DNA of 64,000 nt from an uncultured delta proteobacterium (GCA_963847445.1 CAWJZV010000009.1:64001-128000), one strand, 5' to 3'; shown: positions 4,615 to 45,125, numbered from the stretch's first letter. Translations and numbers: made by a program. Notes: a model not told the origin generated them from the sequence alone.

Positions 4615-5082
4615 CTAATTCTTCAGCCGCACTCTCGTTCCCAGATTCGCGCAGTCCTCATCGGTCATCAGGCCGGCAGCGCGAATGCCATGGGCGGCGA
4701 GTTCTTCGTCGCGCTCCTGGGTGTCGCCGGTGACGCCGACGGCACCGATGACATCTCCCGCTTGATCTCGGATCAACATGCCGCCGCCCTCGGCAAAAAT
4801 CTGATCGTCCGAGGCGCGCATGAGATACTGCATGAACAGCGGACGCTCTTCGGTGCGCATGCGCACCAGCGATGACGAGCGCCCAAGCGCCAGCGCCGCG
4901 TACGCTTTGCCGTAGGCCATCTCGAAACGCATCATCGCCGAGTCGTCTTCTTTCTGAAATGCTTTGACCTTGGCGCCGGGCTCGACGACGATCACACTCA
5001 TCGGCCGGCAAGCCAGCTCACGGCCGCGCGCGAAGATCGCTTCGATGATGCGATTGGCTTGCGCCAACGTGATCATGCTCAT
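4615..5082 (-). CDS. GlcG/HbpS family heme-binding protein
   Basis: ITLAQANRII...MAYGKAYAALAL...GGMLIRDQAGDVIGAVGVTG...DEELA pattern. RBS GAGGAGG. Confidence 0.85.
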   Translation of the reverse strand: MSMITLAQANRIIEAIFARGRELACRPMSVIVVEPGAKVKAFQKEDDSAMMRFEMAYGKAYAALALGRSSSLVRMRTEERPLFMQYLMRASDDQIFAEGGGMLIRDQAGDVIGAVGVTGDTQERDEELAAHGIRAAGLMTDEDCANLGTRVRLKN

Positions 5083-5126
5083 AGGACCTCCTCTGCGATC
5101 TTGGTGCAGTTGTCAACGAAATCGTC

Positions 5127-5147
5127 AGGGCGACCGGCGGTCGCCCT
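5127..5147. repeat. REP-like palindrome (GGGCGACC-GGC-GGTCGCCC)
   Basis: Perfect 9-bp stem. Near-identical copy at 38931-38955. Confidence 0.65.
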
Positions 5148-5176
5148 TCCCAGGTTAAGCGGCAAGAATTAACCAC

Positions 5177-6031
5177 TCAGCGAAACAGCACCGCCGCCAG
5201 CTCCGAACGATACCGGTCGGTCAATGGATCGTCCGAGCCCAGCACTTCGAAGATTTGGATCATCGCCTTGCGCGCGCCGTCGTCTTTGAACTTGCGGTCG
5301 GCCTTGACGACTTGGAGAAACTCGCTGAGCGCTTCGTCGTACTTCTCGACGCCGGCCAGCGTCTGTGCGAGATCGAAACGCGCCTCGATATTGTTCGGGT
5401 CCGCGGCGATTTTTTCCCTAAGAGCAGCCTCATTTTGCGCGCCGCCGGCCTGAAGATTGAGGCGAGCGATCATGCGCTCGGCTTCTTTGCGCTCGTCTGC
5501 GACGATCGAAATTCTGTCGAGAAATTCCAGCGCCGCGGCGTTATCGCCGCCGTTCATGGCCATGCGAGCCATGCCCAACAGCGCCTGGCCATGATTGGCA
5601 TCGGCGGCCAAGATCGCTTCATAGGCGGCTTTGGCTTCAGCAAGCTTGCCTTCGGCTTCCAGCGCCACGGCGGCCTGCGCTTCCTTGTCGTTCGCCGTGG
5701 GTAAATACTTGGTGAGAAACTCGCGCAGCATCGGCTCGGGCAAGGCACCGGTGAACTCCGAGGCCAGCTCGCCGTCGCGAAATAGTTTCACCGCGGGAAT
5801 TCCCTGGATGCCGAACATGCCCGCCAGGTTGGGGTTTTCGTCGACATTGAGTTTAGCCAGAACAAAGCCGCCGGCGTATTCGTCGGCCAACTTTTCTAGT
5901 ACCGGCCCCAGGGCTTTGCACGGGCCGCACCACTCGGCCCAGAAGTCGACCAACACCGGCACTTCGCTCGAGCGCTCCAGCACCGCCGCCTCAAAAGTTT
6001 CCTCGTTAACGTCGATGGTCCATTGACTCAT
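5177..6031 (-). CDS. ybbN: Thioredoxin-TPR chaperedoxin (YbbN/CnoX family)
   Basis: N-terminal DFWAEWCGPCK followed by TPR helices. C-terminal DDGARKAMIQIFEVLG...YRSELAAVLF. Confidence 0.88.
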   Translation of the reverse strand: MSQWTIDVNEETFEAAVLERSSEVPVLVDFWAEWCGPCKALGPVLEKLADEYAGGFVLAKLNVDENPNLAGMFGIQGIPAVKLFRDGELASEFTGALPEPMLREFLTKYLPTANDKEAQAAVALEAEGKLAEAKAAYEAILAADANHGQALLGMARMAMNGGDNAAALEFLDRISIVADERKEAERMIARLNLQAGGAQNEAALREKIAADPNNIEARFDLAQTLAGVEKYDEALSEFLQVVKADRKFKDDGARKAMIQIFEVLGSDDPLTDRYRSELAAVLFR

Positions 6032-7077: not shown

Positions 7078-8152
7078 CTACGGCTCTTTTTGCTCGGCGC
7101 TGGCGTACTCTTCGAAATAGAGATCGAGCAGCGCGCGCAGCAGCGCGAAGATCGCCGGTCCGAGCACGATGCCGACTGGGCCGAACAACGCAATGCCGCC
7201 CAGGATGCCGAAGAAAAGAAACAGCACGGGCAGACCCAAGCGATTGCCGATCAGTAAAGGTTTAAGGACGTTGTCAATGGTTCCGACCACGCCCAAGCAC
7301 CAGGCGAGCAAAATGATGCCGCGAATGGTTTCACCCTGAAGAAACAGGTAAATCGAAACCGGGATGGAAACGAGCGTCGAGCCGCCCACGGGCAAGAGCG
7401 CGACAAACGCCGTGACCACGCCCCATACCGCCGCAAACGGCACGCCCAAGATCCAGAAGGCGAGTCCGGCGAGCAGGCCTTGTACCATGGCCACGACCAA
7501 CGAGCCGTGGATGACGGCGAGCACGGCATCGACGATGTTTTTGAGCAACCTTGTTGATGCTCCTGGTCCATCGGCAGCAGCCGCCGGATCTTGTGCAAGA
7601 ACTGCGGGCCGTCGCGCAGCAGAAAAAAGAGCGTGAACAGCGCGATGACAAAGTTCACGGTGAACAACAGCACGTTCTGCGCCACGCCCGTGACCTTTGA
7701 AACCAGAAAGGCCGACGATGCCTGCGCGCCCTGAACCAATCCCTCTTTCCAATTGATCTTGAAATCAATCAAGCTAAACGAGACCATATTCCACCAACCC
7801 ACGAGCTGTTGTACCCAGGGTTTGGCGCAGCCACTCTTGTTTGCCCGTCGTCGCTCAGGAGCGTGCGCACGGACTGAACCAGCGAGGCAGCTTCGTCGGA
7901 AAGAAACCAGGCGAGTTCGAATCCCGGTACGATCACCAGCAAGGTAATAAAAATCATGACGACGATCGCGGCCAGCGTCGCCCGCCCGCGCAGGAGTTGC
8001 AGCAGCCAAGCGTAGAGCGGATAGACCAGGATCGCCAAGATCACCGCCCAGGTGATCGCCGTGATAAACGGACTGATGATCAGATACGCGCCATAGAGAA
8101 TCAGCAGCAGCAAGGCAAAGAAAAAAGCGGTCACGAGCCAGGTTCGGTTCAC
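7078..8152 (-). CDS. AI-2E family transporter (split by at least 2 frameshifts)
   Basis: PFITAITWAVILAILVYPLY; LFFLLRDG; QGLLAGLAF; IDNVLKPLLIG; GGIALFGPVGIVLGP. Confidence 0.88.
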
Positions 8153-8265
8153 CGGTGCGCCTCCATTTCAACCCATCAACTGTACGTAGGAGAGGCCGGA
8201 GCTGCAAGGTTGCCGGCCGCCGGCAACAGGTTTGATCTTTTATTTTTCCGGCAAATCTGCTTTAC

Positions 8266-9191
8266 ATGGCGGCGATGGCACCAGGACGAAACGATTTTCG
8301 CGTGCGCTTTTGGGGTGTGCGCGGCAGCTATCCGACCACCGGTCCGGGCACGCGAGACATCGGCGGCGACACAGCTTGTGTCGAAGTCAACGTCGGCGGC
8401 CAGCGACTGATCTTTGACGCCGGCACGGGGATCATTCCGCTCGGCAAAGAAATCTGCCGGCGCGCCGCGACCGCGCCCCTTGCCTATGTGTTCTTGAGCC
8501 ATACCCATATCGATCACTTGCTAGGGCTGTATTTTTTTGCCCCGCTGTTGACCGCCGGGGCGCGCTCGTTCATTTACGGGCCGGGCCGGTCGAACGGTGC
8601 GTTGTGGCGCACGCTGCAACAGCTAACCCACAGCAATCTGTTTCCGGTTACTTTCGACGAGCTCAAGGGCAAAACCGAAGTCCACTCGCTGGCCGGCGGA
8701 GAAGTCATGCGCTTCAGCGCGCCCGGTGCGCGGCTGACGCTGCGAAAGCCGCCACCACGCGGCGCAATGACGATGGGCAACAACTATCGATCACGACGCA
8801 TAAGAGCTCGGCGCATCCGCGCGACGGCGTCTTGCTCTACCGCGTCGAGTACCATGGTAAAGCGCTCGTCTACGCCACCGATGTCGAAGAGCAGCCGGGC
8901 GGCTACGCCGATGTCATCGAGTTTGCCCGCGGCGCCGACTTGCTGATTCATGACGCGCAGTATTTGCACGGCGAATACCATTCTAAATCGAAGTCGAAAA
9001 AGGGCTGGGGCCACAGCACCGTGGAGATGGCGGCGGCAGTCGCCGCCAAAGCGCAGGTAAAAAAACTCGTGCTGTTTCATCATGAACCGCAGCATGACGA
9101 CCGGGCCATGCGGCGCATCGAACGGCTTGGCAAAAAATTGTTCGCGGAATCTATAGTGGCTTACCAAGGATTGGAGTTGACGCTGCCGTGA
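8266..9191 (+). CDS. MBL-fold metallo-hydrolase, cyclic-nucleotide phosphodiesterase-like (frameshift near 8750)
   Basis: FWGVRGSYP, DAGTG, SHTHIDH, YATDVE, LIHDAQY, WGHS, LFHHEP motifs. Confidence 0.85.
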
Positions 9192-10183
9192 AACGCCCGA
9201 CGAAATCACGCTGGCCAAGAACAGGGCAGCTCTTTGCGCTGCTTTTTCTCCTGAGCGCTGCCGCACAGGCCCAATCCCAGAGCAAAAACCGCATCGGTGT
9301 CTTGCTGCCGGAGCTCGGCCGGGCCCAGTCCCAGTCCGTCAAAGGCTTGCACGAGGAGCTCACACGCTTAGGGTATATCGAACACAAGAACCTCACCGTC
9401 GAAACCCGCAATGCCAAAGGCGACCGCGGCGCGCTGCGTCCCGCCGCCGACGACTTGGTGGCGCGCAAAGTCGCGGTGATTTTCACCACCGGCACCCGCG
9501 CGACCATGGCGGCGGCTGGCGCCAGCGCCGAGATTCCCGTCGTCTTCGTCCATCCCGGCGATCCGGTGGCGGCGACAATGGTAAAAAACCTGAACGAGCC
9601 GGCGCAGAATCTCACCGGCATCGCCGGCTTCGCCGTGGAAAAAACCGAGAAACGCTTGGAGTTATTGAAAGAACTGATCCCCGAGCTCCGCGAAGTGCAT
9701 ATTTTTTTCGACAGCAACAATAATTTTTCCCGCGACAACTTCGCCTTGGCCCAGGCCGCGGCGAAAAAGCTCGGTCTGCCGGTGGTCGCACATGGCGTCA
9801 AAGCCGCCGACGAGTTGAAGACTACTCTGAGCAGCATGCGCATCGCGCCGGGCGCCGCGCTGTTTCACGTGCCCGACGATTTGGTCGAGGGCGAGGCGGA
9901 ATTCATCTTCACCACCGCGCGGCAGAAAAAGTTGCCGAGCATGTTCAACGAAGAATCCTGGGCGATCCAGGGCGCCACCGCGGCCTACGGCCCAAGTTAT
10001 CTTGACATGGGGCGGCGCGCCGGCGCTCTCATCGGGCGCATCTTGAAGAACCCGAAAACCGCGCTGCCGGCTGTCCAACGCGCCGACAAATTCGATTTCA
10101 TCGTCAACTACCGGACCGCAAACTTTATGGGCTTGAAGATAGCGCCGGCGGTACTGAAGAAAGCCGACAAGGTCATCCGCTAA
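9188..10183 (+). CDS. ABC_sub_bind-type substrate-binding protein (no cognate permease nearby)
   Basis: Signal peptide, RIGVLL, NLTGI, KRLELLKELIP, C-terminal LKKADKVIR. Confidence 0.85.
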   Translation: MKRPTKSRWPRTGQLFALLFLLSAAAQAQSQSKNRIGVLLPELGRAQSQSVKGLHEELTRLGYIEHKNLTVETRNAKGDRGALRPAADDLVARKVAVIFTTGTRATMAAAGASAEIPVVFVHPGDPVAATMVKNLNEPAQNLTGIAGFAVEKTEKRLELLKELIPELREVHIFFDSNNNFSRDNFALAQAAAKKLGLPVVAHGVKAADELKTTLSSMRIAPGAALFHVPDDLVEGEAEFIFTTARQKKLPSMFNEESWAIQGATAAYGPSYLDMGRRAGALIGRILKNPKTALPAVQRADKFDFIVNYRTANFMGLKIAPAVLKKADKVIR

Positions 10184-10191
10184 CCCAGACC

Positions 10192-12825
10192 ATGGAACCC
10201 CTCGCCGATACCATACTTGGCGTAACGATCTTCTCCGGCCTCTCGCGCGAGGATGTCGCCAAGATCCTCGGCAAACTGGAGGAGTGCAGTTTTACCGCGG
10301 GCGAGACGATAATTCGCCAGGGCGATCAAGGCGATGCGTTTTATTTGATTCAGACCGGCGCGGTGCAGGTGGTGGTCGACAGCGGCGCCGGCAATTCCGA
10401 GATCATCGCGATTTTAGGGCCCCGGGACTGGGTCGGCGAGATGGCCTTGTTCTCGGGCGAGCCGCGCTCGGCGACCATTGTCGCGGTCAAAGACTCCACC
10501 CTATGGCGCCTGAGCCGGCAAGAGTGGGATGACTTGATTGAGAAACATCCGACCTTGCTGTTGCAATGCTGCGCCACCCTGAGCAAGCGCTTGTCCTTTG
10601 CCGACCGGCAGTACTCCAGCGGGCGCGAAGCGTTTAATTCCTTAGCCGAAGAGTTCTACGCCGGCAGATCGCCGCGCCAGCAACAGTTCCTCCGTCACGC
10701 TGCGCTGTTGAGCGCCATAGAGGGTGCCACCATCGAGCAGCTCTTTCAATCGAAAGCGGCAAGCCGCGTGCATGCCGACTTGAGCAAGAGCCAGTCGCCG
10801 CTGGTGCGCCATCACGGCGACGACCGGGTCACATTTCACAGTTTCTTCAAAGACTTCTTGCACGACAAGCTGCTCGCCATCGACGGCAGTGAAATTAAGC
10901 AGCAACTGCACGGCAACTTCGCCAAACGCTACGCCGCCATCGGCGACTGGCAACAGGCGATTCATCATGCTACCGAGGTGCCGGACTGGCCCGAGGTGAT
11001 CAAGCTCGTCAAAGCCCAGAGTAAAGAAACCCTCACCGCGGCAGCGCAATTCGTTAAAAACACTTTTGAGCGCCTGCCGCGCGAGTATTTCATCGCCGAC
11101 ACCGCCCTGGTCAATTTGAAGAGCGATATCTTGGTCCAGCTGGGCGATTTGCCCGGCGCATTGCGCGCCTATCAGGAAGTCTTGGCGCAACGCGCCGCCG
11201 CCGGCGAGGCGGTCGCCAGCTACCGCCGCATGGCCGAAACCTTGGCGCGGCGCAAAGAGTATGGCCAGGCGATCGGCCAACTGCGCAGCGCTCTGAGCTT
11301 GATCGAGCGCGACATGACGCTACCGGAGCACTACAGCGACATGGCGCCCGAGCTGGTGTCGTTTAACGGCGAGCGCAGCGGCGAGGACACGCCGCGCCGC
11401 TGGCGCTTATCGGCCGCGGCATTAAAGTCGGCGCCCTTGAGCAAATGGTTCGGCGCCTTGTTGGGCCTCGCTGTCGGCGGCTATCTCTGGTTTGCCACAC
11501 CGGACATCGGCTTGGAGCCCTCCGGCACGAAGCTGTTGGGACTCATCTCGCTGACCCTGATCTTTTGGGTCTTTCGCACCTTGCCGGACTACGGCGTCGC
11601 GCTGGTCTTCGCCATGACCGTCATCCTGACCAAACTTGAGTCGGCACCGACGGTGATGGGCGGCTTCGCCAGCACGACTTGGTTCATGACCCTCGGCGTC
11701 TTGGGACTGGGCGCGGCGATCACCGGCTGCGGTCTATTTTACCGGCTATCGCTCCATCTGGTCCGGCTCTTCCCGCTGAGTTTTCACTGGCAGATCATCG
11801 CCACCGGCATCATGGGGGTGGTGGTCATGGCGCTGATCCCGCAGCAGACCGCGCGCACCGTGATCACCAGTCAAATGCTCATCAATCTGTCCGAAAGTCT
11901 CGGCTACAAAACGCCGTCGAAGGCATCCACCGGACTTTTCGTCGCGAGCTTTCTCGGCCTGGGCCAACTGGGATTTTTATTTTTGACCGGCTCCACCACC
12001 AGCTTGATTGCCTGGGGCTTGTTGCCGCCGGATGTGCGCGAGCAATTCACTTGGGGCTATTGGTTTTTGGCCGCGCTGCCGCCAACGTTGGTCGTAATCG
12101 TCATCATCTTGGCGGTGGCGGTTTTTCTTTATCGCCCGGAAACCCATTCGAATATTTCTTATAAGATGGTGCAGACCCAGCTCGATATCTTGGGCCGCAT
12201 GTCGCACAAGGAATGGATCAGTCTCGTCGTGCTGCTGCTCACCGTCGTCGGCTGGTTGACCGCGCCCTACCATGGCATCGACGGCGCTTGGATCGCCATC
12301 ATCGCCTTCTCGGTGCTGGTCAACACCGCGATCCTCGATTGGGGCATGATGCGCAAAGGCATCGACTGGGAATTGCTAATCCACATGGGCGTAACCCTAA
12401 GTCTGCCGACGTTGATGAAACAGGCCAAGATCGACGTCTGGCTGGTCGACGTGATCTCGCCGCTAATTCTGCCGTTCATGGACAGTCCGGTATGGTTTTT
12501 CGTCGTCATCGCGCTGCTGACCTATGTCTTGAAACTGGTCTTTACCAGCTTCTTGGCCGTGGTCACGCTCTGTGTCGCGCTCCTGCCGCTGTCCATCGAT
12601 GTCGGCATGAACCCATGGATCATCGCCATGATGATTCTGATCGCTTCGGAAGTATGGTTTTTCCCCTATCAAGTCGACTGGCATATGCTCGCCCATTCCA
12701 CCACCGACGGCAAAGGTTTTTCCTATCCGCTCATGTGCCGGATCAATCCGGTTTACGCTATCGCCTACATCATCGCGCTGCTGGTGGCGATCCCCTACTG
12801 GCGTTTCTTGGGCTTGATGAATTAA
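10192..12825 (+). CDS. Fusion: cNMP-binding domain + MalT-like winged-helix/TPR region + DASS (SLC13) permease
   Basis: IIRQGDQGDAFYLI...GEMALFSGEPRSATIVA (cNMP); TFHSFFKDFL...LHGNFAKRY...DWQQAIHHA (MalT-like); multi-TM C-terminus with GFASTTW, IPQQTART, FLTGS, IDWELLI, FFPYQ. Confidence 0.82.
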   Translation: MEPLADTILGVTIFSGLSREDVAKILGKLEECSFTAGETIIRQGDQGDAFYLIQTGAVQVVVDSGAGNSEIIAILGPRDWVGEMALFSGEPRSATIVAVKDSTLWRLSRQEWDDLIEKHPTLLLQCCATLSKRLSFADRQYSSGREAFNSLAEEFYAGRSPRQQQFLRHAALLSAIEGATIEQLFQSKAASRVHADLSKSQSPLVRHHGDDRVTFHSFFKDFLHDKLLAIDGSEIKQQLHGNFAKRYAAIGDWQQAIHHATEVPDWPEVIKLVKAQSKETLTAAAQFVKNTFERLPREYFIADTALVNLKSDILVQLGDLPGALRAYQEVLAQRAAAGEAVASYRRMAETLARRKEYGQAIGQLRSALSLIERDMTLPEHYSDMAPELVSFNGERSGEDTPRRWRLSAAALKSAPLSKWFGALLGLAVGGYLWFATPDIGLEPSGTKLLGLISLTLIFWVFRTLPDYGVALVFAMTVILTKLESAPTVMGGFASTTWFMTLGVLGLGAAITGCGLFYRLSLHLVRLFPLSFHWQIIATGIMGVVVMALIPQQTARTVITSQMLINLSESLGYKTPSKASTGLFVASFLGLGQLGFLFLTGSTTSLIAWGLLPPDVREQFTWGYWFLAALPPTLVVIVIILAVAVFLYRPETHSNISYKMVQTQLDILGRMSHKEWISLVVLLLTVVGWLTAPYHGIDGAWIAIIAFSVLVNTAILDWGMMRKGIDWELLIHMGVTLSLPTLMKQAKIDVWLVDVISPLILPFMDSPVWFFVVIALLTYVLKLVFTSFLAVVTLCVALLPLSIDVGMNPWIIAMMILIASEVWFFPYQVDWHMLAHSTTDGKGFSYPLMCRINPVYAIAYIIALLVAIPYWRFLGLMN

Positions 12826-12834
12826 CAAGAAGCC

Positions 12835-14179
12835 GTGGCTGGTAAAATTCTCATCGTCGACGACGAACCGTTCAATCTCGACCTGCTCGAACAGGAATTG
12901 GCCGAGTTGGGCTATGCGACGGAACGGGCGAGCAACGGCGCTCAAGCCTTGCAAAAAATCGCTCGGGCCAATCCCGCTCTCGTCCTGCTCGATTATCAGA
13001 TGCCCGACATGAACGGCATCGAAGTGCTGCGCAACGTGCGTCAGACCGACCTGGATCTGCCGATCGTTTTGATCACCGCCCATGGCAGCATCGAGCGCGC
13101 CGTCGAAGCGGTCAAAGCCGGCGCCGACGATTTCATCACCAAGCCGTTTGACCCGGAGCATCTCGCCGTGGTCGTCAAGAAAGCCCTCGAGCGCGCCCAG
13201 CTCAAACAAGATGTTGAGTTCTTCGCCCAGGAGCTCGGCGGCCGCAATCACCTGGTGGCGGGCAACAGCGAGGCCATGCGCGGCATCATCGACGAGGCTA
13301 AGAAAGCCGCGGCGAGTAAATCGACGATACTGCTGCTCGGCGAGAGCGGCACGGGCAAGGAACTGTTCGCCCGCTCGATGCACGACTGGAGCGAGCGCCG
13401 GTTGAAACCGTTTGTCGCCATCAACTGCGCCGGGCTGGCTAAAGAACTCCTCGAAAGCGAACTGTTCGGCCATGAAAAAGGCGCCTTCACCGGCGCCCAT
13501 CAGTTGAAGAAAGGCAAACTGGAGCTCGCCCATGGCGGCACGGTGTTTCTCGACGAGATCGGCGATCTGGCCTTGGAACTGCAAACCAAACTGCTGCGCG
13601 TCTTGCAGGAACGCGAGTTCGAGCGCGTCGGCGGCACGAGCAAGATTACCGCCGACCTGCGCATCATCGCCGCCACCAATCGCGACCTCGAAGCCGCGGT
13701 GGTGTGCCGGCGCTTTTCGCGCCGATCTTTATCATCGGTTGAACGTCATCGCCGTGACGCTGCCGCCGCTGCGCGAGCGCAAAGAAGACATCCCAGCGCT
13801 GGCGAATTATTTCTTGCAACGTTGCGCCGCCGATACCAAGAAGAAATTTTCCACCATCGCCGCTGACGCCACGGATAAACTCCTGGCTTATAGCTGGCCA
13901 GGCAATGTCCGCGAGCTCGCCAACGTCATCGAACGCGCCGTCGTCTTAGGCGACGGACCGCAATTAACATTGCACCACCTCCCCGCCCGCGTCATCGGCG
14001 CGCAACCGCCCGGCGGTGCGAAAGAGGTGTCATTCCACGACGCCATCAACAGCTACCGCCGCGAGCTCATCGTCCGCGCCCTCGCCGCCGCCCAAGGCAA
14101 CCGCGCCAACGCCGCCAAAGCTCTGGGCATGCACCGCACCCATTTGATGAAGCTGTTGAAGGCGCTGCAAATCACTTGA
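12835..14179 (+). CDS. Sigma-54-dependent response regulator (NtrC family; frameshift near 13705)
   Basis: REC domain, [47 protein letters not shown], Fis-type HTH. Confidence 0.93.
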
Positions 14180-14434: not shown

Positions 14435-14550
14435 GCTAGAGAAGCTCGGAAGTTCTCTGTGCTGTTTGTGTCCGCTGTTCGCCATCGTTCGCCAATATTT
14501 TGGTTGCTCGCCGCGCCGATGCAGCCCTGCCGGAAGGTTGCCGAAAATTT

Positions 14551-15525
14551 ATGATTGCAAAATTGACCGTTGTCATTGCCATTTGGATGGTCCTGCTTGT
14601 TTCGCCCGCCGCCGCTCAGCAGTCCAACAAACATGCACGGATTGGATTCCTGACCGCCGGTGGGTCCACAATCCCGCCGGCGTTCGTGCAAAAGCTCCGC
14701 GATCTTGGTTATGTCGAAGGCAACAACATCGCCTTTGAAATCCAGATGAGGCGCAGCCCGAACAGCGACTGGTCCGAACCCGTAGCTCAACTCATCAAAC
14801 TGAAAGTCGACATCATCGTCGCCGATGGTTCCGGCCCGGCGACCGCCGCCATGAAAGCGACGAAAACGATTCCCATCGTCATGACCAGCAGTACCGACCC
14901 GGTCGGCATCGGCCTGGTCGCCAGCTTGGCTCAGCCCGGCGGCAACGTCACCGGCCTGTCGAGCGTCAGCGGCGAGTTGGGCGGCAAGCTTTTGGATATC
15001 TTGAAAGAAATCATGCCGCGTCTCAGCCGCGTCGTGATCCCCGGACCAGCGCCGGGGAGCCCGACTCAGGATTTGTTCATGAAGGAAACCATGGCGCCAG
15101 CCCGGGCGTTGAAGGTGGAACTCATTCGAGTCGCCGTGCGCGGACCGGAAGATTACGATCAAGTCTTTCAAACCGCGGCCAAAAGAAAAGCCCAGGCGCT
15201 GGTGGTGCGCATCCCGCCGACTATTGCGCCGGCGCAGCGCCAACAGTTCGTCGAACTGGCGATAAAGCATCGCTTGCCCGCGATCTATCAGGCAACCAAC
15301 TGGGTCGATGCCGGCGGCCTGCTCTCCTACGGCGCCGACCGTAACTACCAGTTCCAACGCACGGCCATCTATGTCGATAAAATTTTGAAAGGCGCCAAGC
15401 CGGCGGAGTTGCCGGTCGAGCAACCCATGAAGTTCGAATTTGTGATAAATCTGAAAGCCGCCAAGCAGATCGGCCTGACGATCCCGCCGAATGTGCTGGT
15501 GCGGGCGGATCGGGTGATTCGATAG
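14551..15525 (+). CDS. ABC_sub_bind-type substrate-binding protein (orphan)
   Basis: AQQSNKHARIGFL, DPVGIGLVASLAQPGGNVTG, ILKGAKPAELPVEQPMKFEFVINLKAAKQIGLTIPPNVLVRADRVIR. Confidence 0.88.
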   Translation: MIAKLTVVIAIWMVLLVSPAAAQQSNKHARIGFLTAGGSTIPPAFVQKLRDLGYVEGNNIAFEIQMRRSPNSDWSEPVAQLIKLKVDIIVADGSGPATAAMKATKTIPIVMTSSTDPVGIGLVASLAQPGGNVTGLSSVSGELGGKLLDILKEIMPRLSRVVIPGPAPGSPTQDLFMKETMAPARALKVELIRVAVRGPEDYDQVFQTAAKRKAQALVVRIPPTIAPAQRQQFVELAIKHRLPAIYQATNWVDAGGLLSYGADRNYQFQRTAIYVDKILKGAKPAELPVEQPMKFEFVINLKAAKQIGLTIPPNVLVRADRVIR

Positions 15526-15570: not shown

Positions 15571-15957
15571 TCAGAGCGGGTAAATCGGAAACCGCAGCGC
15601 GCGGGCGGCGGCGATCATGCGGTCGTCGTAGCTTGCCAGGGCAACGTTTTGTCCTTGTTTGTGCAGAAAATCGAGCGCCGCCAAGTGGAGAACGTCGAGA
15701 GTTCTGACCGAAATCGGAAACGGCTCCAGGGCGCGGGTCAATACGGGCGGGGCGAGTTCGACCAAGGCGACGCGCCCCAGCAACGAGCGCACTTCGTCAG
15801 CGTGAGATCGCCCGAGTCTACGCGAATTGATACGCGTCCAGATTTCGTATTCAAGGAGCCGACTGGAGATCAAGTGCTCGTTCCAAAGACTTTCCGGCGG
15901 CGAGCGATCTTCGGCGAGGAGATGCGCCAACGCTACCGAGGTATCTAGATAAATCAC
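15571..15957 (-). CDS. vapC: PIN-domain (VapC-like) toxin
   Basis: MIYLDTS, RTLDVLHLAA, ASYDDRM acidic motifs. Overlaps the antitoxin by 4 nt. Confidence 0.88.
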   Translation of the reverse strand: MIYLDTSVALAHLLAEDRSPPESLWNEHLISSRLLEYEIWTRINSRRLGRSHADEVRSLLGRVALVELAPPVLTRALEPFPISVRTLDVLHLAALDFLHKQGQNVALASYDDRMIAAARALRFPIYPL

Positions 15958-16244
15958 CGCTCGCTCCGGTCGTCGTCCAGTTCACCTTTGAGCTCGCTGA
16001 AGGGCATCACCGGATTGCGCGGCGGCACACCCTTCGACGACAACGCCGGCGGCATAATCCAACCCTGGCGCACAGCCTCGGCCAACATCGCGTCGGCAAG
16101 CACCGGGCTCCGGCTCGGCTCCGGCGGCACGATCTCGGCAACCACCCGATCGCGATCCGTCACCAGAATCGTTTCGCCGCGCTCGGCCAAGCGCACGTAC
16201 TCGCTGAGCTTGTTCTTCAGAACTTTTAAACCCACAGATCTCAT
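15954..16244 (-). CDS. Phd/YefM family antitoxin
   Basis: VGLKVLKNKLSEYVRLAERGETILVTDRDRVVAEIVP. Confidence 0.88.
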   Translation of the reverse strand: MRSVGLKVLKNKLSEYVRLAERGETILVTDRDRVVAEIVPPEPSRSPVLADAMLAEAVRQGWIMPPALSSKGVPPRNPVMPFSELKGELDDDRSER

Positions 16245-16770: not shown

Positions 16771-19182
16771 ATGAGCTTTAGAGACTTGCCAATCATTCGC
16801 TACTTCGCCGGGCGCGGCCGCGGCCGGCTGATGCGCGATTACTTTTTGATCTCCGTCCTGCTGGTCGGCAGCGGGCTGATCACCAGCGGCGCCATCGAGA
16901 TCTACTATCGCTATCTCGAAAGCCAAGAGACCTTGGCGCTGTTGCAGCGCGAGGTCGCCGCCGGCGCGGCGTTCAAGATCGAGAACTTCGTCCAGGATAT
17001 TCACAGCACGCTGCGCGGCGCGACGCGCAGCCGGGAGATCGCGCCCAAGGGGCTGACCAACGATTTTCGTTTCGAGCTGGAAAAACTGTTGTTGATCGCG
17101 CCGTCGATCACCGAGGCGATCGCGCTCAATCAAGAAGGCGGCATCCAAGTCCAAGCGTCGCGCCTGCGCACGGTGCTGCCCGACGTCAAGCGCGACTTCG
17201 CCACCGGGGCGCCGTTTCTCCACGCCAAGAAGGGGCAATCTTACTTCGGCCCGGCCTACTTCGTGCGCGGCTCCGAACCCTACATGACCATCGCCGTGCC
17301 GATCGAGCGCTTCGCCGGCGACGTCATCGGCGTGCTCCAGGCCGAGGTCAATCTCAAATACATCGGCGACGTGGTGACGAATCTAAAAATCGGCAAGGCC
17401 GGCTACTCCTACGTCATCAGCCGCGGCGGCGAGCTCATCGCCCATCCCGATATCAGTTTGGTCCTGCAGCGGCGCAACGTGTTGAAATTGGAATCGACCA
17501 AAGCCGCCTTCATGCCGGCCGCCGAACGGCCCAAGCGCCAAGCGCTGGTCACCCCCAACGTCCAAGGTAAAAATGTCTTGACCGCATCGGCGCAGGTCAC
17601 CGGGCTCGAATGGGCGGTCATCGTCGACCGCCCGGTGGAAGAAGCCTACGAACCGCTCTACGCGTCGGTCATGCGTACCTCCACGGTGCTGCTGTTCGGA
17701 CTCGGTCTGGCGCTCATGGCGAGTCTATTCATCGGCCGCCGGGTGGTCCGGCCGGTGGGCATCCTGCGCGAGGGCGTCGAGCGCATCGGCGCCGGCGATT
17801 TGGGTCATCGATTAACGCTCAAAACCGGCGACGAGATCGAAGTCCTGGCCGACGAGTTCAATAAAATGACCGCGCAGCTCCAGGAGTCGTACACCAACTT
17901 GGAGCAAAAGGTCGAAGACCGCACCAAGGAATTGACCGAATCGCTGGCGCAGCAAACCGCGACCAGCGAGATCTTGGGCGTCATCGCCAGCTCGCCGAGC
18001 GATTTGCAGCCGGTCTACCAAACCATTCTCGGTAATATCAATCGCTTGTGCGAAGCCAACATCGCGGCGTTGTTTCTCTACGATGGCGAAACTCTCGCCC
18101 TCGCCAACAGCCAGGGCACCACCAGCGAGTTCGCCGACCACCTGCACAGCAGCCGGCCGCGCCCGAGCCACGCCACGACCACGCGACTGGCCGCGCTGGA
18201 GCATCGCGTGGTGCACGTCACCGATCTGCTCAACGATCCCGCCTTCGCGCCCAGCCCCCGCGAAGTTTACGAAAGAGAAAATATCCGCACCGTCATCTCC
18301 ATGCCGCTGATGCGTGAAAACACCCTGGTCGGCGTGATCACGACCTGGCGGCGCGAGGCCCGGCCGTTTACCGACAAGCAGATCGCTCTGCTCAAAACCT
18401 TCGCCGACCAGGCCGTGATCGCGATTGAGAATGTCCGCCTATTCCGCGAGCTGGGCGAGAAGAACGCCCTGCTCGAAGCCGCCAGTAAACATAAATCGCA
18501 GTTCCTCGCCAACGTCAGCCACGAGCTGCGCACGCCTTTGAATTCGATCATTGGTTTCACCCGTATTGTGCTGCGCCGCACCGAGGGCAAGATCGACCAA
18601 TTGCAAAAAGAAAACTTGCAGAAAGTGTTGGTCAGCTCCGAGCATCTGCTTAGTCTGATCAACGAGCTGCTCGATCTCGCCAAGATCGAAGCCGGGCGCA
18701 TGGATGTGTACTCGGAGCCCTTCAAGCTCGAAGAAGTGCTGCGCATCGCCACCGCCACCGTCGAGCCCATGCTCAAAAACGGCAACGTCAAGCTGGTCAC
18801 CGAAATGCCGCCCGACCTGCCGCCGCTCAAATCCGACCGCGACAAGCTGAAGCAGATCGTTTTGAATCTGCTCAGCAACTCGGCCAAGTTCACGGACAAG
18901 GGCGAGATCAAAGTCGCCGCCGTGCGCGACGACGGCATGCTCCGGCTGACGGTCTCCGACACCGGCATCGGCATGAACCCGGAAGCCTTGAAATATATCT
19001 TCGAGGAGTTTCGCCAAGTCGACATGTCGACGACGAGAAAATACGGCGGCACCGGCTTGGGCCTGGCCATCGTCAGACGTCTCGCCCAGCTCCTCGGCGG
19101 CGACATCACCGTCGCCAGCGAAGAAGGCAAAGGCTCGCAGTTCACCGTGACGATCCCGATGGAGCTAAAAATACAATCGTGA
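16771..19182 (+). CDS. Membrane sensor histidine kinase (Cache-like periplasmic, HAMP, GAF, HisKA, HATPase)
   Basis: Two TM segments, GDEIEVLADEFNKM (HAMP), LLKTFADQAVIAIENVRLF (GAF), SHELRTPLN, NLLSNSAKFT, DTGIG, GGTGLGL. Confidence 0.93.
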   Translation: MSFRDLPIIRYFAGRGRGRLMRDYFLISVLLVGSGLITSGAIEIYYRYLESQETLALLQREVAAGAAFKIENFVQDIHSTLRGATRSREIAPKGLTNDFRFELEKLLLIAPSITEAIALNQEGGIQVQASRLRTVLPDVKRDFATGAPFLHAKKGQSYFGPAYFVRGSEPYMTIAVPIERFAGDVIGVLQAEVNLKYIGDVVTNLKIGKAGYSYVISRGGELIAHPDISLVLQRRNVLKLESTKAAFMPAAERPKRQALVTPNVQGKNVLTASAQVTGLEWAVIVDRPVEEAYEPLYASVMRTSTVLLFGLGLALMASLFIGRRVVRPVGILREGVERIGAGDLGHRLTLKTGDEIEVLADEFNKMTAQLQESYTNLEQKVEDRTKELTESLAQQTATSEILGVIASSPSDLQPVYQTILGNINRLCEANIAALFLYDGETLALANSQGTTSEFADHLHSSRPRPSHATTTRLAALEHRVVHVTDLLNDPAFAPSPREVYERENIRTVISMPLMRENTLVGVITTWRREARPFTDKQIALLKTFADQAVIAIENVRLFRELGEKNALLEAASKHKSQFLANVSHELRTPLNSIIGFTRIVLRRTEGKIDQLQKENLQKVLVSSEHLLSLINELLDLAKIEAGRMDVYSEPFKLEEVLRIATATVEPMLKNGNVKLVTEMPPDLPPLKSDRDKLKQIVLNLLSNSAKFTDKGEIKVAAVRDDGMLRLTVSDTGIGMNPEALKYIFEEFRQVDMSTTRKYGGTGLGLAIVRRLAQLLGGDITVASEEGKGSQFTVTIPMELKIQS

Positions 19183-20252: not shown

Positions 20253-21377
20253 TTGGGGAGGCGAAAGGTGACGACAGCGACCCAGCCGGTGATTCTGCCA
20301 CGTGATTCAGGCAATCCACAGTCTCTCAATTCGAAAAAACCAAGTTACGCTCGGTTGTTTTCGGGTTCGGACAATCCAAAAGCGGCCCCGCGGACTAAAA
20401 TCGATATTCACAAATCGCTAGCGTTTCTCTCCGCCGTGCTCGCACTGCTGCTTTGCGCTTCCATTGTTCACGCGCAATCGAAGCTCCCCAAGATCGGCTG
20501 GCTCTCCGCCGTGTCCGGTCCCCCCCGCGGGCGCGAGGAAGTTATTCGACGGCTCCGTGAGCTCGGCCATGTCGACGGCAAGACCGTCGCTTACGAGTTT
20601 CGCTATGCTGATAATAAGTTCGAGCGGCTACCGGCACTTGCCGATGAGCTGGTTCGCCTCAAGGTCGATTTACTGATCACGCCGGGCACTGCCGGCGCCC
20701 TCGCCTTGAAGAAGGCGACCAAGACGATCCCAATAGTTTTCTTAGACGTCACCGATCCGGTCGCCGCCGGCCTCGTTGACAGCCTGGCTCATCCCGGCGG
20801 CAATGTCACGGGCTTCAGCAGCGTTGAGTCGCTGTTGGCCGGCAAACGGCTGGAGCTCCTGAAAGAGACCGTCACTAAACTTTCCTCCGCAGCCGCACTG
20901 TGGGATCCGCGCAATCCAAGCTCAAAGCTGGAATGGCAAGACAGTCAAGCCGCGGCGCGCGAGCTCGGCTTGAAACTTCATTCCCTGGAAGTCAGCAGCG
21001 CCGATAAATACGAGAGCGCCTGGCGCGACGCCAATAAAGCCGGTATCGGCGCGGTCACCGTGTTGTCGACGCCGCTAGCCGCTGCCCATCAAGAACAGAT
21101 TACGCGGTTAGCCGCGAAATACCGCCTGCCGGCGATTTATGTTCAAGAAAACTTTGTTACAGGCGGCGGGTTGATGTCCTACGGCCCCGATCAAAACGAA
21201 CGTTTCAAGCGCATCGCCGTTTTCGTCGACAAGATTTTGAAAGGCGCCAAGCCCGCCGAACTCCCCGTCGAACAGCCGATGAAATTTGATTTCATCGTCA
21301 ATCTCAAGGCAGCGAAGCAGATCGGCCTGACGATCCCGCCCAACGTGTTGGTCAGAGCGGACAGAGTAATCCGGTAA
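20253..21377 (+). CDS. ABC_sub_bind-type substrate-binding protein (orphan; start uncertain)
   Basis: AQSKLPKIGWL, DPVAAGLVDSLAHPGGNVTG. C-terminus near-identical to 14551-15525. Confidence 0.85.
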   Translation: MGRRKVTTATQPVILPRDSGNPQSLNSKKPSYARLFSGSDNPKAAPRTKIDIHKSLAFLSAVLALLLCASIVHAQSKLPKIGWLSAVSGPPRGREEVIRRLRELGHVDGKTVAYEFRYADNKFERLPALADELVRLKVDLLITPGTAGALALKKATKTIPIVFLDVTDPVAAGLVDSLAHPGGNVTGFSSVESLLAGKRLELLKETVTKLSSAAALWDPRNPSSKLEWQDSQAAARELGLKLHSLEVSSADKYESAWRDANKAGIGAVTVLSTPLAAAHQEQITRLAAKYRLPAIYVQENFVTGGGLMSYGPDQNERFKRIAVFVDKILKGAKPAELPVEQPMKFDFIVNLKAAKQIGLTIPPNVLVRADRVIR

Positions 21378-21664: not shown

Positions 21665-22750
21665 ATGCCAAACAAAATCTTAATCGTCGACGATGAACCG
21701 TTCAATCTCGATCTGCTCGAACAAGAGCTGATGGAGTACGAATATGTCCTCGAGCGCGCCACCGACGGCATCGACGCGCTGGCGAAAGCTGATAGTTTCA
21801 GTCCGGACATCATCCTGCTCGACTACATGATGCCGAGGATGAACGGCCTCGAAGTCGTCAGGGCGCTACGGCAGAGCGAGCGCCACAAGAGCGTGCCGGT
21901 GATCCTCTTAACCGCCAAAGCGACTCAGGAAGACAAGATCGCCGGCCTCGACGCCGGCGCCGACGATTATGTCACCAAGCCGTTCGATTCTTTCGAGTTA
22001 TTAGCGCGGGTGCGCGCCATGCTGCGCATCAAAGAGCTGCACGACCAACTGGGCGACTGGAATCGCACGCTGGCGGAGAAAGTTCAGCAACAAGTCGGCG
22101 AGCTCAAGCGCATGGAGCGTTTGAAACGCTACCTCTCGCCGCAAATCGCCGAGACCATCCTGGAGAAAGAAGAAAACCTGTTCAAAACCCATCGCCGCGA
22201 GATCACCGTGGTGTTCCTCGACCTGCGTGGCTTCACGGCGTTCTCGGACAATGCGGAGCCCGAGGAGGTCATGGACCTTCTGCGCGATTATCACGCCGAG
22301 ATGGGCAAGTTGATTTTCCAATTTGAAGGCACACTGGAACGTTTCGTCGGCGACGGCATCGTGGTGATCTTCAACGATCCGCTGCCCTGTGAAGACCATG
22401 GCCGCAAAGCCGTCAGCATGGCGATCGAGATGCGCGACCGGGTGAAAGAACTGCGTATCGCGTGGACGAAGAAGGGCTACGATCTCGACCTCGGTGTCGG
22501 CTTAGCCACCGGCTACGCGACCTTGGGCACCATCGGTTTCGAGGGACGCATGGACTATAGCTCGGTCGGTAATTTGCCAAATCTCGCGGCGCGCATGTGC
22601 GCCGAGGCCAAGGGCGGACAGATCCTCACCGACCAAAAAACCATGAGCCGGTTGGAAGAGTTCTTCGATAGCGAAGCCTTCGAGGAATTCCAATTGAAAG
22701 GACTAAGCCGTCCGGTGCGAGTGTTTAATATCGTCGCAACGAAGGCGTAG
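21665..22750 (+). CDS. Response regulator-class III adenylate/guanylate cyclase
   Basis: REC domain then [38 protein letters not shown]. Confidence 0.92.
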
Positions 22751-24901: not shown

Positions 24902-24991
24902 CAGCTAGTTTGTTTGACCCGTCACAGGCTAAATGTTAGCTTTTTGAAACTTAACTCTAGGTCAATGAGTCCCGCCAACAGCGGAGCAATC

Positions 24992-25541
24992 ATGGAAGAA
25001 CAGATTCGGCAAATTCTCAAAGCCATCGGCGAAGATCCCGAGCGTGAAGGACTGCTTAAAACGCCGCAGCGCGTCGCTGAAGCACTGGCCTTTTTGACCC
25101 GCGGTTATGACATGGACCCTGAGAAGGTGATCAACGATGCGCTGTTTACCGAAGATTACTCGGAAATGATCGTCCAGCGCGACATCGATTTTTACTCGTT
25201 GTGCGAACACCACATGTTACCGTTCATCGGCAAAGCTCATGTCGCCTACATTCCGCATCATAAAATTGTCGGTATCTCCAAACTCGCCCGGCTGGTCGAC
25301 ATTTATGCGGCCCGCTTGCAAGTCCAAGAGCGCATGACCAACCAGATCGCCACGACGATCATGGAAAAACTCGACGCCCTAGGTGTCGCCGTGGTGCTCG
25401 AAGCCGAACATCTGTGCATGCGCATGCGCGGCGTGGAAAAACAGAACTCCTACGTCATCACCAGCAGCTTTGCTCGGCGCCTTTCGGACCCGCCAGGAAA
25501 CCCGCGCCGAGTTCATGAATTTGATCCGGCGCAAGGATTGA
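24992..25541 (+). CDS. folE: GTP cyclohydrolase I (frameshift near 25468)
   Basis: [41 protein letters not shown]. The shifted frame gives [23 protein letters not shown]. Confidence 0.92.
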
Positions 25542-25552
25542 GCGAGAGCGCC

Positions 25553-27031
25553 ATGATGGAAATCCGTTTTCGCGATAGCACCGCTGACCGCATAAAATCC
25601 GACTTGGTCGTTATCCCCGTGCGCGATAAGCAGCTCGACAACCCGGCGCTGCGCGCCCTCGACCGCCATCTCAAAGGCCAGCTGCGCGCGCGCATGAGCA
25701 AAAGTAATTTCACCGGCGCCGAAGGCAGCGTTTTGCTGCATCCGACCGCGGGCATGCTGCCGGCAGCGTATCTGTTGCTCGTCGGTATCGGCGCTGGCGA
25801 AACCAGTGGCGACACATGGCGCAAGGCCGGCGCCAAGGCGCGCAAAGAAGCCGGCGCCATCGGTGCCGGCGAATTCGCCATGCTCTTGACTGCGGAAAAC
25901 AATCTCGAGAGCGCCGCCGGCGCCATCGTCGAAGGCGCCGCACTGGCCGGCTATCAGTTCAACAAATATCGATCGAACGGCAAGCCCGCTACGGCACTGA
26001 ATCGTTTGACCCTGTTTCGTTCCGGTTTAAAGAAAACCAGCGGGTTGCAGAAATCGGTAGATATCGCGCAAGCCACCGCGCCCGGAGTTTTCCTGGCGCG
26101 CGATTTGGTTAACGAACCGCCGTCGGTGGCGACGGCAAAATTTCTCGGCGCCCAAGCCCAGCGCGCCTGCCAAGGCCGCGGTCTATCGGTGGAAGTGTGG
26201 AACAAGAAAAAAATCGAGGCGATGAAGTTAGCCGGCCTGCTGGCGGTCAATCGCGGCAGCTTGGAAGAGCCGCGCTTCATTCGTATCCGCTACCGGCCCG
26301 CCGGCAAAGCGCGCAAGCGCGTCGCGCTGATCGGCAAAGGCATCACCTTCGACTCCGGCGGCCTGTCGCTCAAGCCGTCGAAATCGATGGAGACCATGAA
26401 GCTCGACATGGCCGGCGGCGCCGCGGTCATCGCCACCATGAGTTGCCTGCCCAAGTTGGGCCTCGATATCGAGGTCACCGGCTACGTGCCGACCACCGAC
26501 AATTTGCCGGGCCATAATGCGCAGAAGCCCGGCGATGTCATTCGTTATATGAACGGCAAGACCATCGAAGTGTTAAACACCGACGCCGAGGGCCGCTTGA
26601 TTCTCGCCGACGCGCTCGCTCTAGCGGCGCAACAAAAACCCGACTACATGATCAATCTGGCCACGCTGACCGGCGCCTGCATGACCGCTCTCGGCACGCA
26701 GGTTGGCGGCATCTTCAGCAACCACCAGCCGTTGGCGGACAGTCTGCTGCGGAGCGGCCAGGAAGCCGGTGAAAAACTCTGGCAACTGCCGCTGGTGAAG
26801 GAATATAAAGAGCTGATCAAGAGCGCTGTCGCCGACATGAAAAACATCGGCGGCGCCCATGGCGGCGCCATCACCGCGGCGCTGATCCTGCAGGAGTTCG
26901 TCGGCGACACCGCCTGGGCCCATCTCGACATCGCCGGCCCCGCCTTTGCCGAAAGCGACAATCTGCTCGGTCCCAAAGGCGGCACCGGCTTCGGCGTGCG
27001 CACGTTAATAAAATTTTTGCTGAGTCTTTAA
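25553..27031 (+). CDS. pepA: Leucyl aminopeptidase (M17)
   Basis: [33 protein letters not shown]. Confidence 0.94.
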
Positions 27032-42227: not shown

Positions 42228-42250
42228 CGTAGTGGTCCTAATTGCCGTTC

Positions 42251-42278
42251 GTAGGGGCGATTGATGAATCGCCCCTAC
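42251..42278. repeat. GTAG-type REP palindrome
   Basis: GTAGGGGCGATT-GATG-AATCGCCCCTAC, perfect 12-bp stem. Confidence 0.75.
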
Positions 42279-42290
42279 CTTGTAATGCGA

Positions 42291-45050: not shown

Positions 45051-45060
45051 GATTTTTCTC

Positions 45061-45100
45061 GAAAAAAAGCCAGTCATCCGGTCACTGCCGAATGACTGGC
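45061..45100 (-). terminator. Hairpin + U-tract between dctP and dctQ (terminator or mRNA stabiliser)
   Basis: GCCAGTCATTCGG-loop-CCGGATGACTGGC-TTTTTTT on the minus strand. Confidence 0.75.
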
Positions 45101-45125
45101 GTGTTGCGCCAATCGCTTCAGGGAC

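Follow-up and report, generated by a model that had tools for sequence, protein, structure and literature searches.

A predicted cyclic-nucleotide-binding, MalT-like and DASS permease fusion protein encoded beside a PF04392 binding protein in an uncultured delta proteobacterium

The nearest characterised regulated carrier of the DASS fold is Pho90 of yeast, a low-affinity phosphate transporter with a cytoplasmic N-terminal extension of about 430 residues, which we take to be an SPX regulatory domain; SPX domains sense inositol pyrophosphates. Control of a membrane transport protein by a cyclic nucleotide is the concept embodied by the channels SthK and MloK1, which have a pore and carry the sensor C-terminal to the gate. 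Here we describe a gene at positions 10192..12825 (+) in a stretch of 64,000 nucleotides from an uncultured delta proteobacterium (GCA_963847445.1 CAWJZV010000009.1:64001-128000; hereafter the window), whose product joins a cyclic-nucleotide-binding (cNMP) domain, a MalT-type winged-helix domain (WHD) with TPR-like repeats and a DASS permease in a single chain. The product shares the DASS fold with Pho90 (Foldseek TM-score 0.79), but Pho90 is eukaryotic, its regulatory domain is not made of cNMP, winged-helix and TPR parts, and it has no binding protein. Unlike the two channels, the carrier would be of the elevator type, with its sensor N-terminal and tethered. A previous sequence-only reading of the window had stated that characterised DASS carriers possess no such cytoplasmic module; this is correct for VcINDY, NaCT and CitT but not in general, as Pho90 (a solved structure of 881 amino acids, with the DASS domain at 435-794) has its large N-terminal extension. 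Our own reading, to which we give about an even chance, is that the gene encodes an inner-membrane, exchanger-like DASS carrier that is probably controlled by a cyclic nucleotide, most likely cAMP, and that may depend on a periplasmic binding protein.

In the open reading frame (ORF) listing of the window, the gene is one uninterrupted ORF of 877 amino acids with an ATG start, in agreement with the coordinates and length first claimed for it, and all five motifs quoted in that first reading were located in the translation (GEMAL at residue 82, PRSAT at 91, FHSFFKDFL at 215, WQQAIHHA at 253 and FFPYQ at 823). Pfam recognised cNMP_binding (PF00027) at residues 33-119 with 93.9 bits against a cutoff of 27.5, and Na_sulph_symp (PF00939) at residues 417-875 with 130.4 bits against a cutoff of 27, the latter match running over profile positions 2-471 of 472; CitMHS was also matched, with 42.9 bits. 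These domain matches are far above chance level. An AlphaFold2 model of the full-length protein, built from a 33-sequence alignment (mean pLDDT 82, pTM 0.60), placed the parts in the order of a beta-roll cNMP domain (1-118), a long helix (120-157), three helices with a beta-hairpin (161-215), helical repeats (217-375), a segment with pLDDT below 50 (375-413) and the permease from residue 414. The boundaries that we adopted, all on the plus strand, are the cNMP domain at residues 1-119 (10192..10548), the long C-helix at 120-157 (10549..10662), the winged-helix domain at 158-216 (10663..10839), the Arm/TPR-like helical repeats at 217-375 (10840..11316), a disordered and poorly conserved tether at 376-413 (11317..11430) and the DASS (SLC13-type) permease domain at 414-877 (11431..12822). 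Mean identity to 11 close homologues was 0.86 in the DASS domain, 0.84 in the C-helix, which is thus second only to the DASS domain, 0.77 in the cNMP domain, 0.65 in the TPR region, 0.48 in the winged helix and 0.32 in the tether. The three-module architecture that had been proposed stands in each of its parts, as the following paragraphs describe.

The closest PDB sequence match of the cNMP domain was the regulatory subunit of protein kinase A (PKA; 3of1, E 2.9e-29), and the other top matches were cAMP- or cGMP-binding domains of PKA, protein kinase G (PKG), CRP-family proteins and the channel SthK (about 2e-12). The phosphate-binding cassette, GEMALFSGEPRSATI at residues 82-96 (10435..10479, +), is intact, as had been claimed from its motifs: G82 and E83 do not vary across the 33 sequences, which reach down to 23% identity, R92 and A94 are retained in at least 90% of them, and a regular expression for the cassette matched all 120 of the close homologues listed. 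With a profile score above cutoff and with both the Gly-Glu pair and the Arg of the cassette present, the domain belongs to PF00027. These results suggest that its predicted ligand site is under selection. One could still suppose that the domain has ceased to bind a cyclic nucleotide and serves another ligand, or dimerisation only, which would leave the carrier outside second-messenger control. Domains of the CNB fold with other ligands do exist (NtcA, FixK and FNR appear in the subfamily table of PMC2246266), and a looser cassette expression fitted only 56 of 89 distant representatives that combine cNMP and DASS domains. However, retention of the canonical Gly-Glu and Arg-[ST]-Ala elements, the PKA, PKG and SthK domains at the top of the sequence matches, and a cyclase gene linked to the carrier locus make such a loss of function quite improbable in our judgement.

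Four partly independent lines identify the region after the cNMP domain as a MalT/STAND-type winged helix followed by TPR-like repeats with no P-loop, as first read, although the Foldseek E-values taken alone are weak. The NCBIfam MalT model PRK04841 aligned with residues 150-311 (E 1.3e-8) over positions 254-416 of its 903. Pfam matched TPR_2, TPR_12 and TPR_16 at 305-371, all weakly. AlphaFold2 modelled residues 145-378 alone with a pLDDT of 93.6, and in a Foldseek search of the PDB this model retrieved MalT (8bob_C, E 2e-3, 164 columns, root-mean-square deviation (rmsd) 3.2), then the STAND-TPR protein 6mfv_A (E 4e-3) and then ordinary TPR proteins. In the ESM Atlas, the clusters nearest to this segment carry PF25873 WHD_MalT with scores of 0.96-0.97, and the same family is a precomputed label on most of the close homologues listed; our own Pfam scan gave no PF25873 match even at E up to 10, and its presence rests on the precomputed labels and the Atlas. 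A Walker A sequence GxxxxGK[ST] occurs nowhere in the 877 residues, and the MalT model covers only the portion stated above; the winged helix and the arm/TPR unit are present and the P-loop NTPase (NOD) domain is absent. The carrier is not a STAND NTPase: it shares the winged helix and arm/TPR unit with MalT and the STAND proteins but lacks their NTPase, helical and LuxR DNA-binding domains, and has the cNMP domain at the position of the NTPase. The likeness to CRP and FNR is of another kind. They too combine a cNMP domain, a long C-helix and a winged helix, and Foldseek aligned 230-244 columns but with an rmsd of 10-12; CRP has a DNA-binding helix-turn-helix (HTH), whereas the winged helix here is of the MalT type. 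HTH_Crp was not matched in Pfam, the NCBIfam CRP model covers only residues 20-141, and NCBIfam, Foldseek and the Atlas all favour the MalT type. We rejected the reading of the winged helix as a CRP-like DNA-binding element, and the carrier is not a CRP-type regulator.

A full DASS permease had been claimed for the C-terminal half. Foldseek searches of the PDB with the full model confirmed it, giving TM-scores (normalised to the target) of 0.85 for AtDiT2.1, 0.80-0.84 for VcINDY and 0.78-0.82 for NaCT, and these scores assign it to the DASS fold, which consists of scaffold and transport domains with two re-entrant hairpins. The C-terminus is thus of the Na_sulph_symp/CitMHS kind. The NCBIfam model TIGR00785 ('dass') scored 129.6 bits, below its subfamily cutoff of 198.6, and the permease is therefore a member of a divergent DASS subfamily. 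We combined the query with 15 stand-alone relatives in a profile, which, when searched against the PDB, gave E-values of 8.9e-54 for DiT1, 1e-51 for DiT2.1, 2e-39 for LaINDY and 4.2e-20 for VcINDY, with the human SLC13 carriers also far weaker. DiT1 and DiT2 are exchangers. According to Sauer et al. (PMC7553777), LaINDY falls in the exchanger clade DASS-E, where Arg159 and His392 act as permanent surrogates for two Na+ ions, and the DASS-C clade is defined by two Ser-Asn-Thr (SNT) hairpin-tip motifs that bind substrate and Na+.

The first hairpin-tip motif of the carrier is IPQQTAR (residues 549-555; 11836..11856, +), which aligns with the PSxxAR of the exchangers. All 33 sequences have P550, and all have a basic residue, Arg or Lys, at position 555; R555 is invariant in the 14 closer ones and aligns with the Arg of PSNSAR in LaINDY, which places the Arg159 (Na1) residue in the carrier. 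The second motif reads FFPYQ, as had been noted (residues 823-827; 12658..12672, +), and aligns with the T-H-Y of the exchangers; Q827 is invariant in the 33 sequences. The DASS-C SNT motifs are absent, the aligned positions reading Q-Q-T-A-R and F-P-Y-Q, and the DASS-E His at the Na2 site (LaINDY His392) is absent as well, with Pro at that column of the family profile. The carrier therefore resembles DiT1, DiT2.1 and LaINDY in fold, in having them as best profile matches and in its basic residue at the Arg159 position, but differs in having Gln for the Ser of PSxxAR and F-P-Y-Q for T-H-Y, and these exchangers have no N-terminal cytoplasmic module. Placement in the Na+-coupled VcINDY/SLC13 branch was rejected, since neither SNT motif is present and the profile favours DiT and LaINDY, by over 20 orders of magnitude. 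The carrier is not a DASS cotransporter; by its sequence, it is an exchanger-branch DASS permease with a predicted binding site of its own.

The fusion is conserved well beyond the window. A search for homologous proteins gave 669 matches. The best 120, which we used, range from 859 to 890 amino acids, share 69-98% identity with the query and align over 97-100% of its length; those that have a name carry the label 'SLC13 family permease' (Candidatus Binatia) or 'anion transporter'. An exhaustive search of clusters at 50% identity gave 606 representatives with E below 1e-30, a count that includes plain DASS proteins and proteins with several cNMP domains. When the best 150 of these 606 were re-scored with the three parts of the query, 89 had one cNMP domain and a full DASS domain, 30 had DASS with no detectable cNMP domain, 14 had several cNMP domains and no DASS, and 17 were fragments or other forms; full-length relatives aligned in a single stretch reach 27-30% identity among these 150. 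The spacer between cNMP and DASS domains in the 89 fusions is shorter than 110 residues in 31, 110-260 residues in 30 and longer than 260 in 28. These results point to a large cNMP-DASS family in which the long MalT-like spacer is one variant. Such fusions are not rare, and no member has been characterised: in the literature searched we found no paper describing a cNMP-DASS fusion, and the rows seen of the CNB-domain classification in PMC2246266 include channel, histidine-kinase and ABC-type fusions and, among those rows, no DASS or symporter entry. A separate observation concerns P0187 (1380 amino acids), met in the representative search, which has an N-terminal CstA (carbon starvation transporter) region, a cNMP domain at 607-691 and DASS at 950-1342, and is either a further fusion or a gene-calling artefact.

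We also surveyed genomic loci with a 14-sequence alignment, which covers relatives of at least 53% identity, and found 65 carrier loci, all in metagenome-assembled genomes (MAGs) that are mostly labelled Candidatus Binatia or 'delta proteobacterium'. Might the fusion nevertheless have arisen by an assembly or frameshift error that joined two or three adjacent genes? Three neighbouring genes of the window do carry frameshifts, and proteins of 375-430 amino acids consisting only of the N-terminal part occur on some long contigs. A search for the stand-alone N-terminal module gave 521 shorter proteins, many labelled partial or lying on short contigs and some on long contigs, among which split genes are not separable from contig ends or frameshifts. 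However, the fusion recurs as a single ORF in at least 120 homologues from several sources, in the 65 loci, which include many independent assemblies, and in divergent clusters down to 27% identity. The orthologue in one locus (L005) is itself broken into three frames, and short forms can accordingly be products of error. With the same single ORF in so many other assemblies, the artefact is ruled out for practical purposes, and we regard its chance as negligible.

Directly upstream of the carrier, at 9188..10183 (+), is a gene for a periplasmic binding protein of family PF04392 (ABC_sub_bind; Pfam 163.5 bits), here called SBP1, whose stop lies 8 nucleotides before the carrier start. It is closest to 3lkv, 6hni and 3lft in the PDB and to the TrpX model in NCBIfam. 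The ligands of the three solved PF04392 proteins are L-Trp, L-Tyr and L-Phe (PMC10443332, Table 1). We counted a carrier locus as evaluable when the 5' end of the gene and at least 1000 nucleotides upstream were present. An SBP1 orthologue (44-93% identity) ends within 400 nucleotides upstream on the same strand in 41 of the 53 evaluable loci, with gaps mostly of 5-20 nucleotides, and the gene is also present in two more loci whose upstream sequence is shorter. The twelve loci that lack it mostly belong to a second paralogue group of 53-58% identity, including copies about 40 kb away on the contigs of L002 and L005 (L045 and L052), which encode a second cNMP-WHD-TPR-DASS paralogue of about 57% identity with no SBP1 gene upstream; the window holds one carrier copy only. 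A common operon partner was not found among six loci of the paralogue group without SBP1. As a separate observation, three loci of that group have a phosphonate-type binding protein and an ABC ATPase directly downstream in convergent orientation, all on the minus strand (L039 8751-10450, L051 8734-10427 and L054 6130-7823).

Complex prediction of SBP1 with the DASS domain gave 0.35 against 0.00 for the best of three controls, with at least 95% contact agreement between runs and a partner pLDDT of at least 82. Of 157 solved complexes, 116 reached the mark applied, as did 2 of 215 mismatched pairs; both of these mismatches but only 18 of the solved complexes did so with scores of 0.60 or less. 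A fused relative was found in P0169 (1005 amino acids), in which the cNMP domain (37-122) is followed by DASS (about 195-651) and, after the last DASS helix, by a Peripla_BP_6 domain (675-1000). P0272, a single 560-residue ORF on a 328-kb Bacillota contig, matches P0169 over residues 1-220 (65% identity) and 660-1005 (59% identity) and lacks the DASS body, and the N- and C-terminal parts of P0169 therefore belong to one polypeptide lineage. In P0271 and P0272 (560-565 amino acids, from a Bacillota MAG), a single membrane helix joins a cytoplasmic cNMP domain to a periplasmic Peripla_BP_6 domain, and both look like P0169 minus the carrier body.

Three lines thus favour a partnership of SBP1 with the carrier, which may exist: the tight adjacency with no ABC partner genes found in the window, the weak pass of the complex prediction and the fused relative. 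It could also be that SBP1 is a mere neighbour which serves a histidine kinase, a chemoreceptor or an ABC importer elsewhere, so that the carrier alone would be an exchanger regulated by cyclic nucleotide. PF04392 proteins are annotated as ABC components, in line with the TrpX model, the two other paralogues of the window adjoin signalling genes, no SBP1 gene is adjacent in the twelve loci above, the complex prediction is weak, and binding proteins are also said to stimulate signal-transduction receptors in the abstract of PMC10443332. The tight same-strand adjacency persists, however, while SBP1 falls to 44% and the carrier to 55% identity, a scan of 60 window ORFs, each 100 amino acids or longer, turned up neither an ABC permease nor an ABC ATPase, and a relative with a fused binding domain exists. 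We consider it somewhat unlikely, though worth keeping in mind, that SBP1 is only a neighbour.

A partnership of this kind would resemble the TRAP, TTT and TAXI-GltS systems, in which an elevator-type membrane part likewise has a binding-protein gene in the same operon. Those systems use DctP, TAXI or TctC binding proteins with DctQM, TctAB or GltS membrane parts, whereas here a PF04392 protein stands beside a PF00939 permease with no Q subunit, and the carrier is therefore not a member of the TRAP, TTT or TAXI families. None of the three is known to carry a cNMP sensor. According to PMC12344293, the TRAP membrane components share the DASS fold, and TAXI-GltS is a precedent for a new pair of binding protein and elevator carrier that was inferred from gene linkage and modelling.

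A candidate source of the cyclic nucleotide lies further downstream in the window, where a gene at 21665..22750 (+) encodes a receiver domain and a class III nucleotidyl cyclase, probably an adenylate cyclase (Pfam Response_reg and Guanylate_cyc). Among solved structures it comes closest to the adenylate cyclase CyaB (3r5g, E 5.3e-38). At the positions which we presume set purine specificity, the alignment has Arg where CyaB has Lys and 2w01 has Glu, and the Asp is kept. Orthologues of the receiver-cyclase (67-80% identity in the catalytic part) lie upstream of the carrier cassette on the same strand in 19 of the 65 loci, and more distant cyclase homologues are nearby in nine further loci. A dCache-HAMP-GAF histidine kinase is encoded at 16771..19182 (+; Pfam), with orthologues upstream of the cassette in several loci. 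On the basis of these sequences, the carrier probably links nutrient uptake to cAMP signalling.

A mechanism can be outlined in four steps. The co-encoded two-component path, from dCache histidine kinase to receiver-cyclase, would make cAMP. The cAMP would bind the N-terminal domain, and the C-helix and the winged helix that follows would re-orient as in CRP. The WHD/TPR unit, on its flexible tether of about 40 residues, would then dock on or leave the cytoplasmic face of the carrier dimer, and docking or release would permit or block the elevator movement; we prefer docking to rigid coupling within the chain because the tether is disordered. Finally, SBP1 would hand the substrate over, and the carrier would then be a secondary transporter dependent on a binding protein, comparable with TRAP and TAXI-GltS. 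As to that substrate, the ligands of solved PF04392 proteins are aromatic amino acids, and the carrier has neither of the loop motifs seen in dicarboxylate carriers. A bolder version holds that this is a new class, in which a PF04392 protein feeds an exchanger-type DASS elevator that is switched by cAMP from a co-encoded, two-component-controlled cyclase, with the WHD/TPR unit, a STAND module whose NTPase has been swapped for a cNMP domain, as the transducer; in full, we think this version rather unlikely.

Several points weigh against the reading that we favour. Both substrate-loop motifs deviate from the SNT and the exchanger motifs and the Na2-surrogate His is lost, so that transport competence is not assured. 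The tether (375-413; pLDDT below 50) falls from a mean identity of 0.32 in close homologues to 0.03 in distant ones, and being both disordered and poorly conserved it makes rigid allosteric coupling through the chain unlikely; the docking that would take its place is purely our inference, and the pTM of the full-length model is only 0.60. The Arg in place of Lys at the specificity position of the cyclase leaves the nucleotide that it makes unsettled. SBP1 is missing from 12 of 53 evaluable loci, some of which hold a second carrier copy within one genome. The complex prediction passed weakly, and a pass at this level will be false more often than true if the pairing was not likely to begin with. 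The domain fused in P0169 comes from another family of binding proteins, and P0169 itself forms a cluster of one, on a contig of 5.7 kb. The sigma-54 regulator that follows the carrier in the window is directly downstream in only 5 of 52 loci.

Some of the same features would suit a transceptor, in which the DASS domain and the binding protein would mainly sense a periplasmic ligand and the WHD/TPR unit would convey the signal to soluble partners, for instance the sigma-54 regulator or the cyclase path, with the cyclic nucleotide as a second input and net transport minor or absent. TPR modules are typical protein-protein interfaces, and the one here sits on a flexible tether; both substrate-loop motifs are divergent; and many signalling genes lie nearby, namely those for a histidine kinase, a cyclase, three receiver proteins and three orphan binding proteins. 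P0272, which keeps the cNMP domain, one membrane helix and the periplasmic domain and has lost the DASS body, fits signalling in that lineage. On the other hand, the DASS domain is the best conserved part of the carrier among its close homologues, its hairpin tips keep the invariant Pro, the basic residue and the Gln as a working carrier would, no partner has been identified, and the sigma-54 regulator is seldom adjacent, as given above. We find a transceptor with little or no transport unlikely. The broader description given first, a putative cyclic-nucleotide-gated carrier or transceptor, is still the best reading of the sequence, and within it we favour the regulated carrier.

The carrier belongs to a conserved family of secondary carriers with predicted regulation by a ligand, which is a kind already known. 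There is little documentation of second messengers acting on bacterial secondary carriers at the post-translational level. A 2023 review (PMC10710835) notes fusions of cNMP domains to MFS carriers, with no tested case given in the relevant passages. The cNMP-DASS family would offer a model for cyclic-nucleotide gating of an elevator-type carrier, for a STAND-type WHD/TPR unit that works with no NTPase, and for the use of a periplasmic binding protein by a DASS carrier, as in its TRAP relatives. It also points to a cAMP circuit in the Binatia, known here from MAGs only. Since human SLC13 carriers with inhibitor-bound structures share the DASS fold, a natural allosteric switch on it would be of wider interest.

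The MBL-fold gene, SBP1, the carrier and the sigma-54 regulator are tightly packed, with overlaps or gaps of at most 9 nucleotides. The first of these is an MBL-fold (RNase Z/ElaC-like) gene of phosphodiesterase type at 8266..9191 (+), split by a frameshift in the window into two ORFs in different frames; it lies upstream of the carrier in 22 of 51 loci and is intact at 320 amino acids in L003. Its NCBIfam matches, RNase Z (2.4e-22) and a cyclic-nucleotide-degrading phosphodiesterase (4.4e-12), fell short of the cutoffs, and the PDB matches to RNase Z/ElaC were weak; with matches of this quality, a role as a clear cNMP phosphodiesterase was not established. The sigma-54-dependent response regulator (NtrC/AtoC-like; ORFs and Pfam) at 12835..14179 (+) is also frameshift-split in the window and is intact in L003 with 447 amino acids. 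An AI-2E family transporter at 7078-8207 (-) is split into two overlapping ORFs, judging from the ORF frames. These three adjacent genes are broken in the window, whereas relatives have them whole, and the carrier ORF has no indel; as the MBL gene and the regulator are intact in L003 and the carrier orthologue of L005 lies in three frames, we attribute the breaks to indel errors in these assemblies rather than to pseudogenes. The AI-2E transporter gene is also near the carrier in L002 and L015. In L039, a 178-residue cNMP-binding protein (4941-5477, -) lies with an AI-2E transporter, divergent, upstream of the carrier paralogue.

Downstream of the sigma-54 regulator, the window continues with a second PF04392 binding-protein paralogue (14500..15525, +; Pfam), an inserted toxin-antitoxin pair (PIN-domain toxin, Phd/YefM antitoxin; 15571-16244, -) that runs on the opposite strand between this gene and the histidine kinase, the kinase itself, a single receiver, a third PF04392 paralogue (20253..21377, +; Pfam) between the receiver and receiver-cyclase genes, and the cyclase. 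There are thus three PF04392 paralogues within 12 kb (9188-10183, 14500-15525 and 20253-21377), and the position of two of them among two-component genes suggests sensor roles for this family here. Further along, a 705-residue ORF at 24914-27031 (+) contains GTP cyclohydrolase I at 27-189 and an M17 leucyl aminopeptidase at 233-699, and represents either an unusual gene fusion or two genes that an indel has merged. The window also encodes a TRAP cluster of DctP, DctQ and DctM at 42238-46289 (-), in which the DctM ORF has 711 amino acids with the DctM profile matching only at residues 11-207 (best stretch), and may be enlarged or fused.

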